A stretch of 33,896 bases of DNA from Cystobasidiomycetes sp. EMM_F5 (Eukaryota). This document shows, one piece after another, positions 1,819 through 7,765 of the stretch; position 1 is the stretch's first letter, and every line of letters begins with the position of its first letter. The notes beneath the pieces were generated by a model. The model was not told the origin of the DNA. It saw only the letters and a list, made by a program, of their open reading frames with translations, and ran no database searches. The stretch is taken from the NCBI GenBank assembly GCA_051047955.1, contig JBPGPT010000064.1, positions 1 through 33,896 of the forward strand, given 5' to 3'. The position numbers and the translations under genes were made by a program.

Positions 1819-2476
1819 ATTCAGCATGGAAGTAACCCTCTGTAGCAGTAATAGACAATGGACAATACATATTCACACGACCTTCAATGTCATGACGGCC
1901 TGCAATGCTTATATCCCTCAGCCAAAGAGACGGCATCTACTCACAACATGCCCTGTGCAAGGCTGTAGTATCCGGAATATACTTATGCAGACGCGCCTCG
2001 CATCAAGACCCAATTTATGTAAGGCGGCGTTGCTTTGCATGGGTGACATGCGCAGAAGGCCGATCTTGGGAGCGGAAGAGTATAAAGGTGTGGTGTCATC
2101 AGTTGTGCCCATGGCATAGTCAGACAAGCTTGCGAGGATATCGATGCGGAGATGTCATTAATCCGGTACCGCAAATTGAACGTTGTCTACGAGACGCGCA
2201 TAGGCCGTATAATGGCATGGATTCGTATGAGCTCGCATTTGTTCTGCGCAACTCTCTCTGTCAGTTCAGCTTTGTTCCGGTTGAAGTCGATGGCGAGCTT
2301 TGGGCGATAAATGTCCAATCACCCCTAATTTGGAGTCCTCCGGATGACGGTGTATGGAATGGTATTGCGAATTTGCTGCTCAGCTCCAGACTGAACGGAG
2401 ACCCTGTCGCCAATGCAGAATATGGCTATCGTAATGACCACCGAGACAGTCATTCGCTCATGACAGTTAAGGCGGC

Positions 2477-3636: not shown

Positions 3637-4904
3637 ATGGCGCAGCCTCGACATCGTCCGTATTCCACGGCCAGCTCTGCGCAGCTTGAACGTCCGCTGT
3701 CGAATTTCTACGGCGAGTTGCCTGCCGGTGCTGCGCCTTCGCCTGGCGCTCGAGGCAGCGTAGCCTTCACTCATCGTGACAGTCAGTACGGTGCAGGCGG
3801 ATATGGCGCGCGTCAGAGCGGTTTCTATTCTATGCAAAACGAGGACGATGATGAGGACCGACCACTTCAGCCATCACCGCACGACTTTTACGCAGACTTT
3901 GCGACTGGTTCCGGCCCAAGATATGCAGAGCGCTTGAACAGCAGTGCCGATGTCTATGCCGCAAAGTCTCCCACCTCCCCGCTCAATGACACCAAGACAT
4001 CGCTCCTCGACAAACAGAATGGTGGACTGAAAAGCCCAGGCAGCGGAGGCATACGCAGTCCAGGCAACAGGGCTTCCGTCGTTGCAGCTGGTGAGGTGCT
4101 CCTCGCGCCCGAGTTGGGCAAAGAATGGGGAGGCGCCGAAGAGGCACGCGTAAACAAGGCAGTCCGAGACAAGAGCCGCTTCAACGGAACGACGCGACTT
4201 TTTCCAAGCTTATGGCAAGGCTTCTTGCGATGGTTTGAATGGAAGCGATTCATCTTTGTCGTGTTTGCTTTCATCTGCTGGTGAGTGACGTGCAAGCGCA
4301 TTAGGCGGAGAACGCGCTAATTTCGCGAATTAGTCTTGCTGCGGTTTTGTACTTTCTCGTACCACGCGTTCCCAGTCTCGAGCTCAACAATGACATGCCA
4401 TTGAATGTGACGGCTAATTCGGAGCCAGTATTTACTCGAACTCCGACAATCATGGACTGGGATGCTCAGCTCAACATCGCGATTGATGGCCAGTCTAATT
4501 GGATTCCAGTAGGTGAAGCTAAACTGGATGTTGTTGTCACTGCTGATAAACCCTCTGCCTAGTTTCACTTCAATTCCTTTGGCGTCACGGTCTATGATCT
4601 AAACACTGGCAAGAAGGTCGGGCAAGGTGGCATCACCGGTGGACGCAAGGACTTTCCCGGACGTGATGTCACGCCAGTAACGCTGGATCTCTCCTTCTTC
4701 TACCGCGCCAACAACGTATCCGACGAGACTTGGCAAGATTTCTATCAGGCCTGCTCGCACAAGTATACCAACGTAAATAGGCCAGGACTCAGCTTGACGG
4801 TCGAGGTGGATATGTCTATCAGAGGTATTATAGGCTCGAGAAAGACATCTGCGTCTTTGAGTAGCGTTGCTTGTCCCATAGAATTGCCGGCGGAGAATGC
4901 TTGA
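3637..4904 (+). CDS. Single-pass membrane protein with disordered N-terminus and probable LEA_2-like C-terminal domain; exons 3637-4280, 4334-4508, 4563-4904
   Basis: Spliced frame gives a TM helix (FIFVVFAFICCLAAVLYFLVPR), then SNWIPFHFNSFGVTVYDL...CPIELPAENA-stop. This resembles the fungal TM plus LEA_2 architecture; the domain call is by recognition only. Confidence 0.75.
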
Positions 4905-5540
4905 TTGTTGTAGCGTTCATGAGCAAGACCTGCGATCAGTTGTATGTTTTGATGTGCTCACTCATTGCAGCTCTTGACGGTGCATTCGATGATTACCTGC
5001 AGTGTACGACATTCGCAGCTGGTGGCGATCGAAGAATTTTGCTATCGGAATGAGGCTTGTGAACAGTGTTATGAATCATCTATAGTAGAGTCGTATAGTG
5101 TGACTCAGTAAACCGATCCGCCAGACGACAATCATTCTTCTCGAATTTGTATCAAGCTTTTAGTAGTATCTTGTGTGTGATCGTTGTCACTGGGTATTCT
5201 TGGAGAAACTGTGACCGCTTCGGTCAGACAATGGAAATGTGCCGCTCTGGTACGGTGTCCATAAAGGTGCTCTGACCTCGAGCGGAGGCGTACGTACTCG
5301 AGACTTGCGTAAGAGTCAGGCACCGTCTTCCAGGCCTCGAAGAGGCAACAGGTGAAATCGGTTTGGACACCGTTGGAGCTGCTTGGCAGTCTCTTACTCT
5401 AGTGGGCTTGCGAGTATCTGCCACGTTTCGGTTTGAGTTGGGGGAGAAGGGCGTGCCTTCGGGAACACACTCCTGGGAGAGACACACTCCTGCGAGAAAA
5501 TATTCGAAGGAGGAAAGCCGTGCTGGTCTTTGTAAGACAA

Positions 5541-5548
5541 TTATATAT
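5541..5548 (+). promoter_or_regulatory. TATA-like element upstream of the tRNA gene
   Basis: TTATATAT lies 33-40 nt upstream of tRNA position 1. Upstream TATA elements are known for Pol III tRNA genes in some fungi, e.g. S. pombe. Confidence 0.5.
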
Positions 5549-5600
5549 GTTTTGATGGCTTCGTTGTGGCTAAAATAGGCGTCCTGATGGTCTAGTAGTA

Positions 5601-5654
5601 GTGAGTTTGCAAACTATCATTAAACCCCAAAACTTAGAGCTGACAACATTGAAG
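5601..5654 (+). other. Spliceosomal-type (GT-AG) intron inside the tRNA D-arm, position 21/22
   Basis: GTGAGT donor, GCTGAC branch motif at 5639-5644, first downstream AG at 5653-5654, and a 54-nt length like neighbouring mRNA introns. Confidence 0.75.
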
Positions 5655-5670
5655 TGATTTATCCTTAGGG

Positions 5671-5684
5671 AAACAATGCCGAAA
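5671..5684 (+). other. Canonical 14-nt tRNA intron at 37/38
   Basis: AAACAATGCCGAAA begins one base 3' of the AGG anticodon. The antepenultimate A can form the anticodon-intron pair with U32. Confidence 0.8.
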
Positions 5685-5730
5685 TGGATGAGGTCCAGGG
5701 TTCAATTCCCTGTCAGGACCGCTCCCTGCC

Positions 5731-5735
5731 TTTTT
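5731..5735 (+). terminator. RNA polymerase III terminator
   Basis: TTTTT 10 nt after the tRNA 3' end, followed by further T-rich tracts. Confidence 0.7.
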
Positions 5736-6049
5736 CTTGTTCTTTTCCCATACTGGTCGTTTTCAATCTTTCCTTTTTTCCTTCAAATATGGGATTCACT
5801 TTCTGTTGCTTTTGCCCCTGCCTTCTACCTTGCCGGTGTCTTTCTCCTCGCCCGCGATCGTCGTCTCTTTGCCCCCCGCCTGCAGCTGTTTTTACACCCG
5901 CTAGATCTCTGAATTTCCAATTCCGCGAGCCAAAGTAGCAATTGCGAGGAAAATATCAACTCGAAAACAACGACCATACCATATGCAAGCATGAGAGAAG
6001 CAGACTAATTTATGATCATTTAGGATGGAACTGCATTGAAATTGGTGCA

Positions 6050-7581
6050 CTACCACGCCATCCCTAACAATATCAATAAATCCTTCTCGTCTCTATCTCT
6101 ACTAAACCTCCCAGATACGAGCTTGCCCTGCCAGCGCCCTTTACCTCCACCTTTGAGTCGCTTGCAAAGCTGACTTTCACCCTTCTTTATTTCCTCACTA
6201 ATCCTTGCCGCGACAGCTTCGTCACTTGAAAAGACGACGAGACACCCATCAGGCACTGCATTACCGTGCCCACTGTGTGCAATTGCGAATGTGTACGCCT
6301 TCTCGCCGGAAAGACGTTCCTTGATCTTCGTAGAAACCAACGACAAAAAGTCGACATCGTTAGTCGCATCCTCCTCCCGCACCAGAGCGGCGATCAGATG
6401 CCCATCTTTGGATTGAGACCGGGCCTTGTCGATGGCTTGACTGGCCACCATTTCCGCCAACTCGTCCCGCATCCGCTTTTCGCGCCGTCCCAGCTCTTTG
6501 GCATTATCAGACAGAGTCTGTATGCGTGATGGAAGATCGTCATTACTACAAGACATGATGAGTGAAGAGTCGCGTAAAACAGACAGCCCTGTCGTGAGCT
6601 GCGAAATAACTCGCGGCCCCGCAATAAAGTAAACTCGCGTATTCGTGCCGCGTATAGGCGTGGTTGCACGCGAGACGTGTATACCTTGCAAGGGAGCCAA
6701 GGAGTGGTAGTGCGTTCCGCAACAAGGATTGCGATCCAGATTATCGATAATCACATGCCGTACGACCCCGCCGATATAGTCCGCTGGCAAGGTTGAAGGC
6801 CTGCTGTCCTCCTTGGCTATCTCAAATTCCACTCTAACCCGACGCCCTTCTACGATGAGGTCGTTGCAGATCTGCTCTGCTTCAGCTAGCTCCTCCTGCG
6901 TCGGTTTCCTGGGTAGCTCGATATAGCTTAGCTCCGGAAAAGCAGAAAGGGCCCAGCCCACGGTGTCAAGCTTGAAATGATGTTCAAAAACTGCTGATAG
7001 AAGATGCTGTGCAGTATGCTGAGTGCACGAGTCGTGCCGTCTAGTCCAGTCTACTTTGACCAGCACCCGCTGGCCGACTTCCACAGGACTAGTACAGATG
7101 TGAACAGCTGCCAAGTTTCGTCGAACGACTTCCTTTACGACTATTGGTGTGGCAGAAGGTTTGCCTAGAGGCGCGAGAAGGCCGGTATCTGTAGCTTGAC
7201 CGCCACCTGGTTGCAACTCAGTTGCAATCCCACGAAGCATGTCATGAGCTTACCTTCAGGGAACAGGGCGGTATCGGAGAGCTCAATCTCCCACATCTCT
7301 TCGTTAAGCGCTTTACCATTTTGTTTACCCTTGGCTTTGCCGTTACTTCTCGACACTAAAGCTTCGCTTGTCGACGTTCGCTTCTCGCATCTTGTGACAT
7401 AAGCCTCCAACTCGCGAAGGTTGGGATCTATTTGACAGGCCAGCAGCCCGACGTATCGCTCTCGAGGCAGCTTGAATGCTATTTCGGCATAATCCTCAGG
7501 GGTGGTAACGGGTTCCGAAAGACTGATGCGAGCGAGCTGGCCATTCAACGTAGCCATATCAGAGAGTATGGCGGCGGTCAT
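6050..7581 (-). CDS. Free-standing alanyl-tRNA editing protein (AlaX/AARSD1-like); exons 7581-7254, 7206-6050
   Basis: DTALFPEGGGQ across a 47-nt intron; Zn ligand motifs QHTAQHLLSA (HxxxH) and CCGTH (CxxxH); C-terminal GGGKG DHHA1-like motif. Confidence 0.92.
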
Positions 7582-7765
7582 GTTAGGATACTGCGAGTCT
7601 CTGTAGGTTAGAGAAAGACTGCGAAAGCCATGATGCTGTCAATAACCAACGTGTTTGTGAATTGTGGTTGCTTTCAGATTCCATTACCTTCTAGCTTGGA
7701 CGCGGACACGCGCCAGACGATGAAGGCGCAGAAGAGTCGGTCCGAAACGCGTGCATGCAGTGAAC

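Follow-up and report, generated by a model that had tools for sequence, protein, structure and literature searches.

Introduction

U6 small nuclear RNA (snRNA) is made by RNA polymerase III (Pol III), and introns in its genes were reportedly described by Tani and Ohshima in 1989 and 1991 and by Canzler et al. in 2016. For other snRNA genes, introns are said to have been reported by Takahashi et al. in 1993 and 1996, and for ribosomal RNA (rRNA) genes by Bhattacharya et al. in 2000. Rhodotorula hasegawae, a name that recurs below, is a red yeast of the Cystobasidiomycete type, like the host of the DNA described here. Spliceosomal introns are recorded in the U6 snRNA genes of Schizosaccharomyces pombe, R. 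hasegawae and other fungi, with up to four introns per gene, as well as in the U1, U2 and U5 snRNA genes of R. hasegawae and in rRNA genes of ascomycetes (PMC5855946). The introns of transfer RNA (tRNA) genes are placed elsewhere, since the three nuclear intron types were termed 'completely unrelated' in 2025, spliceosomal introns being assigned to RNA polymerase II (Pol II) transcripts and tRNA introns to cleavage by an endonuclease (PMC12530127). Here we describe a tRNA-Pro(AGG) gene of 140 nucleotides (nt) on contig JBPGPT010000064.1 of Cystobasidiomycetes sp. EMM_F5 (assembly GCA_051047955.1), which was analysed as one stretch of 33,896 nt, termed the window below. The D arm of this gene is interrupted by 54 nt (5601-5654) that we consider likely to be an intron of the spliceosomal type, maintained in a Pol III tRNA gene and present beside an ordinary 14-nt tRNA intron between tRNA positions 37 and 38 (37/38).

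With the U6 introns, which the original prediction for this locus had invoked as a precedent in S. pombe and some red basidiomycete yeasts, the insert shares a setting in a short fungal non-coding gene of putative Pol III type, and the canonical 5′, branch and 3′ sites within an otherwise unconserved sequence. It differs from them in that the host RNA is a tRNA, the transcript of which would also need the tRNA endonuclease and ligase, and in that introns of the tRNA genes lie between or beside the intragenic promoter boxes. A tRNA is not a component of the spliceosome, so its gain of an intron cannot be put down to nearness to the catalytic centre. The introns of U1, U2, U5 and rRNA genes are similar in being GT-AG introns of structural RNAs, in that rRNA is not made by Pol II, and in that fungi of the Pezizomycotina type are involved; however, the RNA classes and the polymerases differ, and none of these hosts is a tRNA.

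A different comparison is offered by the bulge-helix-bulge, the motif through which non-canonical sites become open to cleavage by the tRNA endonuclease in red algae, nucleomorphs and archaea (PMC4090602). Like tRNA genes of Cyanidioschyzon merolae, of cryptophyte and chlorarachniophyte nucleomorphs and of Crenarchaeota, the genes described here are interrupted in the D or T arm, may contain up to three or four introns and are missed by standard eukaryotic tRNA finders (PMC4090602; PMC3728597; PMC8450103). Unlike in those systems, where the introns are defined by the bulge-helix-bulge or are 3-24 nt long and are cut by the endonuclease, the inserts found here have 50-55 nt, a GT start, a branch motif and an AG end, with no bulge-helix-bulge. 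As in canonical nuclear tRNA genes, one intron is located at 37/38 in the window gene and in each of eight related genes (14-41 nt), whereas the 54-nt insert is located at 21/22 and has signals of the splice-site type.

In the full-text literature that was searched, which left most subscription journals outside its scope, no description of spliceosomal introns in tRNA genes was found and the exact phrase 'spliceosomal introns in tRNA' occurred in 0 papers; a prior description may exist. PMC6108506, PMC2633312, PMC3978253 and PMC11782384 proved to have no bearing on the question. What would be new is the tRNA as a host of spliceosomal introns, which were known before in other non-coding RNA genes.

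The Interrupted tRNA-Pro(AGG) Gene

The layout of the gene was derived from ARAGORN calls made after deletion of the inserts in silico and from direct reading of the window sequence. The tRNA positions of inserts follow our own numbering, and the A-box and B-box sequences used for matching are those which we take to be the consensus. The features are as follows.

5541..5549, + strand: AT-rich TATA-like motif, about 35-40 nt 5′ of the mature 5′ end; a possible Pol III upstream element, of putative function.
5581..5600, + strand: exon 1 of tRNA-Pro(AGG), with the acceptor 5′ strand, the D-stem 5′ strand and the D-loop (positions 1-21); ARAGORN with the insert deleted.
5588..5598, + strand: A-box-like element, wholly within exon 1, with A for G at tRNA position 18; match to the presumed consensus.
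5601..5654, + strand: probable spliceosomal-type GT-AG intron, 54 nt, between tRNA positions 21 and 22 (D-loop/D-stem boundary); deletion test, and GT-AG inserts of 50-55 nt at this site in all 8 loci found by a scan (see below).
5601..5606, + strand: 5′ splice-site motif GTGAGT, the commonest 5′ hexamer of the window's own introns in messenger RNA (mRNA) genes.
5639..5644, + strand: branch-site-like GCTGAC, in which A5643, the putative branch point, lies 11 nt from the 3′ end of the insert; direct reading.
5652..5654, + strand: 3′ splice-site motif AAG (the insert ends in GAAG), the first AG past the branch motif; direct reading.
5655..5670, + strand: exon 2, with the D-stem 3′ strand, the anticodon stem 5′ strand and the anticodon loop to position 37 (anticodon AGG); ARAGORN and stem alignment.
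5671..5684, + strand: canonical tRNA intron at 37/38, 14 nt, with borders that may shift by 1 nt; called by ARAGORN when introns are allowed.
5685..5720, + strand: exon 3, from position 38 to the discriminator C73 (anticodon stem 3′ strand, variable loop, T arm, acceptor 3′ strand); ARAGORN.
5699..5709, + strand: B-box-like element GGTTCAATTCC, agreeing at 11 of 11 consensus positions, 111 base pairs (bp) 3′ of the A box; match to the presumed consensus.
5731..5735, + strand: TTTTT, a Pol III terminator-like run, 10 nt past the gene; direct reading.

The insert site at 21/22 is thus located 16 nt upstream of the canonical intron site. The original prediction held that standard finders would miss such a gene, and default ARAGORN run over the whole window indeed reports 0 tRNA genes, while Rfam at gathering scores reports 0 RNA families in the window. 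It was also proposed to run a tRNA finder on the raw locus and on the locus without the insert. On the raw locus ARAGORN gives no tRNA with the intron option off and a spurious 96-nt 'tRNA-Asp(atc)' with the option on, the same mis-call being the sole match in the whole window. After deletion of 5601-5654 it calls a tRNA-Pro(AGG) of 72 nt with a 14-nt intron at 37/38, and after deletion of both this stretch and the 37/38 intron it calls a clean 72-nt tRNA-Pro(AGG) with discriminator C. Deletion of 5601-5654 is therefore necessary and sufficient for ARAGORN to call the 72-nt tRNA-Pro(AGG) with its 37/38 intron. Both the sequence and these calls agree with what had been described, i.e., a tRNA-Pro(AGG) gene with a D-arm insert and an ordinary tRNA intron, which yields a 72-nt cloverleaf with C73 when it is cut at the GT-AG borders and freed of the 14-nt intron. 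Every stem pair of this tRNA forms (all 20 that are expected), apart from U13/U22, which is unpaired throughout the family of related genes. As to another finder, non-canonical introns are sought by tRNAscan-SE 2.0 solely in the archaeal mode (PMC8450103).

Splice Signals of the Insert and the mRNA Introns of Its Host

The insert reads exactly as had been claimed, starting with GTGAGT, containing GCTGAC and ending in GAAG at the first AG downstream. The mRNA introns of the window were collected by a script that joins open reading frames (ORFs), and its 40 candidate rows were reduced to 15 introns, one per 5′ site. These are 50-128 nt long and the two that lie nearest to the tRNA gene have 53 and 54 nt, compared with 54 nt of the insert. 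GTGAGT forms the 5′ site of 7 of the 15, more often than any other hexamer, and a branch-type motif CTGAY is present in 12 of the 15. The 3′ end is YAG in all 15 script-derived introns and AAG in none. The last intron of a QCR2-like gene (26653-26587, minus strand; 67 nt, GTATGA...GCTGAC...GAAG), which was left out of this set by the 5′-site filter, joins the reading frame to a plausible C-terminus when it is removed. Since this intron ends in AAG, non-YAG acceptors occur in the mRNAs of this organism, and the AAG end of the tRNA insert, unusual as it is, has a precedent. Taken with the QCR2 intron, which the original prediction had cited, the set of 15 bears out the proposed match in size and signals between the insert and the mRNA introns of the window.

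Judged by the features of spliceosomal U2-type GT-AG introns, the insert has the 5′ hexamer, the branch motif, the first AG after the branch and the length, with A instead of Y as the base before AG. In composition-matched random 53-mers, the combination of GTNNG at the start, AG at the end and a YTRAY whose A lies 9-13 nt before that end has a probability of P = 3.3e-5.

Related Interrupted tRNA Genes

A search for tRNA halves split by GT..CTRAC..AG inserts had been suggested together with the original prediction. A first scan of metagenome contigs, with a pattern made of exon 2, a gap and the 3′ strand of the anticodon stem, gave 0 matches. The pattern of the second scan fixed the D-arm flanks, GTNNGT, 25-55 free bases and AG; it prescribed neither a length inside the range of 33-63 nt nor positions 3-4, a branch motif or the remainder of the tRNA. 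It found 8 loci (L001-L008) on 8 contigs with 7 different record prefixes, whereas the same pattern gave 0 matches in a prokaryote genome collection and 0 in viral contigs used as controls. All 8 matches are full tRNA genes, six of tRNA-Pro and two of tRNA-Ala, with the insert at the same D-loop/D-stem boundary. When left uncut they yield nothing with ARAGORN in 5 of 8 cases and a wrong anticodon or intron in the other 3, while after removal of all inserts 9 of 9 genes (the window gene included) are called as 72-nt tRNAs. Their identities after insert removal, and the further inserts that some of them contain, are given below.

Pro(CGG): L001 and L008.
Pro(TGG): L002, L006 and L007.
Pro(AGG): L004 and the window gene.
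Ala(CGC): L003, 1927-2070, minus strand.
Ala(AGC): L005, 177-328, plus strand.
L001: further GT-AG inserts at 46/47 and 60/61.
L006: further GT-AG insert at 54/55 (1891-1943, minus strand).
L007: further GT-AG insert at 53/54 (1905-1959, minus strand).

The most heavily interrupted gene is L001 (1994-2255, plus strand), a 262-nt tRNA-Pro(CGG) gene on a 269-kilobase (kb) contig, in which inserts of 50, 54 and 52 nt at 21/22, 46/47 and 60/61 are combined with a 34-nt canonical intron, and which is followed by a T8 run. Its mature tRNA is 97% identical to that of L008, yet there are three inserts in the former and one in the latter; the mature tRNAs of L006 and L007 are 92% identical and their T-arm inserts lie one nucleotide apart. 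As near-identical genes differ in their inserts, turnover of the inserts is indicated, which suggests that intron gain and loss in these tRNA genes may be ongoing.

The two tRNA-Ala genes have G3-U70 and discriminator A. Their D-arm sequence and insert site are identical to those of the tRNA-Pro genes. The D arm of yeast tRNA-Ala differs from that of these Pro-like genes. Exchange or remoulding between tRNA families may account for the Pro-type D arm, or it may reflect the mere selectivity of the scan pattern.

Altogether 13 inserts are present in the nine genes and all have 50-55 nt. The 5′ sites are GTGAGT in four, GTACGT in three, GTAAGT in three, and GTAAGA, GTATGT and GTCAGT in one each; the 3′ ends are TAG in six, CAG in five and AAG in two (the window insert and the one in the D-loop of L007). 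In 13 of 13 inserts the A of a YTRAY lies 9-13 nt before the 3′ end, with 0.059 expected per random insert, although the script that combined candidates for the four extra inserts admitted solely GT..AG candidates with a branch motif. The borders of these four are also set by the abutting halves of the T arm and the variable loop. The original prediction had been staked on the conservation of splice signals in related loci, and the signals are kept in all 8 of them, each from a lineage other than that of the window.

The branch motif tracks the host, being CTGAC in the window, as in its own mRNA introns, and mostly of the CTAAC type in the other loci. The ORF-joining search for mRNA introns was too noisy on the short loci and gave one credible intron there, next to the tRNA gene of L001 (3495-3441, 55 nt), which reads GTCAGT...GCTAAC...TAG. 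Between the signals, the interiors of the inserts have a pairwise similarity of 0.43-0.66, compared with a shuffled null of 0.54 +/- 0.05. Because they are no more alike than shuffled sequences, the signals alone appear to be maintained and the inserts are not a repeat family.

One may ask if the inserts are not simply non-canonical tRNA introns, cut by the tRNA splicing endonuclease (TSEN) or by another endonuclease, with the GT-AG and branch motifs being coincidental. Introns in the D and T arms, and tRNA genes with two or three introns, are known in C. merolae and in nucleomorphs (PMC4090602; PMC3728597), and 3 of the 13 inserts can form a 4-bp central pairing if G-U is allowed and the best of 9 registers is taken. 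However, even in the most favourable of the 9 registers a complete bulge-helix-bulge is formed in 0 of the 13; where a central helix is possible, in the said three inserts, the outer helix measures 0-1 bp. The minimum-free-energy fold is likewise free of the motif. The window insert in particular lacks a complete bulge-helix-bulge and is located at 21/22, not at 37/38. Moreover, there is no reason for an endonuclease to require GT..YTRAY..AG at fixed spacing within 50-55 nt, as is found in 13 of 13 inserts, or a branch motif that follows the preference of the host's mRNA introns. We hold this reading of the inserts to be very improbable.

Still less credible, to the point that we give it hardly any weight, is a chance or mobile-element insertion that resembles an intron and has left a dead tRNA gene. 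The window does contain one copy only of such a gene. However, an insertion of this kind would have to be reconciled with the absence of a second copy of the insert within the window, with the lack of similarity to the 12 other inserts, with the presence of an insert that has retained these signals at the same site of eight other genes, in at least two phyla, and with the low probability of the signal triple given above. An introner or other mobile element was rejected on the same grounds, i.e., no other copy in the window and no likeness among the 13 inserts beyond the signals.

The exons, in turn, can be compared as tRNAs. In the nine genes 179 of 189 stem cells are paired; U13/U22, which is invariant, accounts for nine of the ten that are not, and a T-T in L005 for the last. 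At least two pair types are used at 13 of 21 stem pairs, and compensatory pairs peculiar to the window copy occur in its acceptor, anticodon and T stems. The exons, as far as can be judged from such patterns, behave as tRNAs under selection.

Two further observations concern the window insert. Within it, a 12-nt palindrome (5604-5615) precedes a C4A4-like stretch that resembles a template and is absent from the 12 other inserts. Ciliate telomerase RNA (RF00025) was matched at window 5585-5737 (plus strand) with 23.6 bits, compared with a gathering score of 52, and E = 0.099 on 301 nt; this match was taken as chance.

Hosts and Genomic Setting

The window is eukaryotic, with Pfam matches to RICTOR, to a cytochrome bc1 core-2-like M16 domain and to others. 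The tRNA gene is located in a 1.1-kb gap between two convergent genes, the one on the same strand lying about 630 nt upstream. The neighbour on the other side encodes an AlaX-like protein, of the type that deacylates misacylated tRNA-Ala (6050-7638, minus strand), with its stop about 330 nt from the tRNA 3′ end; that such a gene adjoins a tRNA gene is probably a coincidence. The best named relative of the AlaX-like protein is from Cystobasidium minutum, with 61% identity, compared with about 40-46% for Microbotryomycetes, and on account of this identity the host is read as a Cystobasidiomycete-like yeast of the Pucciniomycotina. Contigs of two DNA sequencing runs reach window positions 4815-5067 and 6258-6797, not the tRNA locus.

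For the related loci, a protein of the Csm1/Pcs1 type that flanks the tRNA gene of L001 is 83% identical to one of Saxophila tyrrhenica, followed by rock-inhabiting fungi of the Mycosphaerellales type, which places the host of L001 among the Dothideomycetes. A flanking protein of L003 has named relatives in Helotiales only, with 27-36% identity, so its host can be described as Pezizomycotina-like and no closer. A Protein Atlas search with the flank of L006 gave no usable match. Judged by these placements, the class of interrupted genes spans Basidiomycota and Ascomycota.

Transcription Signals and the State of the Window Copy

A run of five or more T is found within 30 nt downstream of 8 of the 9 genes (L008 has T4), whereas such a run occurs in 1.8% of 30-nt windows drawn at random from the sequences under study. 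In all nine genes the A box is free of inserts, and a contiguous B-box-like 11-mer matches at 9 or more of 11 positions in 8 of the 9; for L002 the top-scoring B-box match was spurious and a 9/11 match in the T-loop was read by eye. In L007 the T-arm insert lies within the B box, and the terminal AG of the intron rebuilds with the exon an 11-mer that matches at 9/11. TATA-like motifs are present upstream of some of the genes only, not of all nine, and were excluded from the evidence. As had been claimed, the window insert is free of T4 runs, the longest T run within the 140-nt gene being three. We infer Pol III transcription of the window gene solely from these box and terminator motifs.

The same signals bear on the possibility that the introns are truly spliceosomal but that the transcripts are made by Pol II, either as read-through or as dedicated non-coding RNAs, from which RNase P and RNase Z would free the tRNA after splicing. 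Splicing is normally coupled to Pol II, and the position of the window gene downstream of a same-strand gene and between two convergent genes would suit read-through; the long A-to-B spacing, the one split B box and the lack of significance of T-run avoidance in the inserts point the same way. However, the excess of terminator-like runs behind the genes, the uninterrupted A boxes and the quality of the B boxes argue for Pol III, and U6 shows that Pol III transcripts can be spliced (PMC5855946). On these grounds transcription by Pol II appears improbable.

Several points weigh against the reading of 5601-5654 as a maintained spliceosomal-type intron of a Pol III tRNA gene. The scan itself forced the site, the GT, positions 5-6 (G5/T6) and the AG of the 8 D-loop inserts, in addition to the selection of the four extra inserts noted above. 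No locus of the window's own lineage is among the 8, so the conservation is one of the class and not of a window orthologue, and hosts are placed for two of the 8 loci (L001 and L003) and for the window. The AAG 3′ end is unusual for the window (0 of 15 scripted introns, with the QCR2 intron as the one that uses it). The A-to-B box spacing of 111-188 bp in the nine genes is longer than usual, and the B box of L006 stays split by the T-arm insert, which poses the question of how TFIIIC would bind. Avoidance of T runs inside the inserts is not significant (1 T4 run, 3.0 expected, P = 0.17). Finally, the D-loop of the window tRNA after splicing reads AGTAGTA, while it is AGTGGTA in seven related genes and AGGGGTA in one; the window tRNA thus lacks the conserved G18 G19, with A at what is position 18 in our numbering, where 8 of 8 related genes have G, a point absent from the original prediction. 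The window copy could be weakened or dead through this A18, which lies in the A box at a near-universally conserved G.

The last point leads to the most serious of the alternatives, namely that the class is real and the window copy is a paralogue that is decaying or inactive, its spliceosomal-type intron being genuine and its product no longer a functional tRNA, in which the change of G18 to A weakens both the A box and the contact between D-loop and T-loop. The divergent D-loop and the rare AAG acceptor would fit such a copy, and D- and T-arm insertions in eukaryotic tRNA genes are by default read as 'pseudogene' in the field (PMC4090602). Nevertheless, all 20 expected stem pairs form, including the lineage-specific compensatory pairs, the three splice signals, the canonical intron, the B box (11/11) and the T5 terminator are all present, and a single substitution in 72 nt does not amount to decay. 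This alternative is therefore regarded as unlikely, though it deserves more attention than the others.

Proposed Maturation and Implications

If 5601-5654 is a maintained spliceosomal-type intron, a maturation pathway can be proposed for the window gene. Pol III would transcribe the whole 140-nt unit by means of the A box in exon 1 and the intact B box, and would stop at the T5 run 10 nt downstream. The nuclear spliceosome would then recognise GUGAGU, GCUGAC (with the branch at A5643) and AAG, release the 54-nt stretch as a lariat and join A21 to U22, so that the D arm could form. The ends would be processed by RNase P, RNase Z and the CCA-adding enzyme, and the 37/38 intron would be removed last, by the tRNA splicing endonuclease and ligase, given that the endonuclease needs a folded mature domain. 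Since a canonical 37/38 intron is found in every gene of the class, one would naturally take these genes to depend on two splicing systems, and the proposal that this pre-tRNA needs both the spliceosome and TSEN, made in the original prediction, gains support from the signals at 8 related loci, from the 37/38 introns and from the missing bulge-helix-bulge.

Beyond the single locus we incline, on balance, to the view that a hidden class of Pol III tRNA genes, unable to mature without the spliceosome, exists among fungi and extends over at least two phyla. The class would include a Cystobasidiomycete-like yeast, a Dothideomycete and at least one other Pezizomycotina-like lineage, with one to three GT-AG introns (50-55 nt) in the D loop, the variable loop and the T arm. 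Such genes would depart from the view taken in current reviews that spliceosomal and tRNA introns form distinct systems, each with substrates of its own (PMC12530127), and from the presumption that insertions in the D or T arm of eukaryotic tRNA genes mark pseudogenes (PMC4090602).

If this is true, the tRNA sets of many fungal genomes would be under-annotated, as standard finders miss such genes and fungal tRNA counts would consequently be incomplete. With their varying sets of inserts, the near-identical genes would form a natural and tractable system in which the recent gain or loss of spliceosomal introns could be studied in a gene without a reading frame. If the genes are expressed as proposed, tRNA would join U6 as a spliceosome-dependent product of Pol III, and the maturation of a single small RNA would call for two splicing machineries, unrelated to each other, in a set order. 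The three nuclear intron systems described as 'unrelated' would then converge on one 72-nt RNA, and in these organisms the spliceosome would be a tRNA-processing enzyme.

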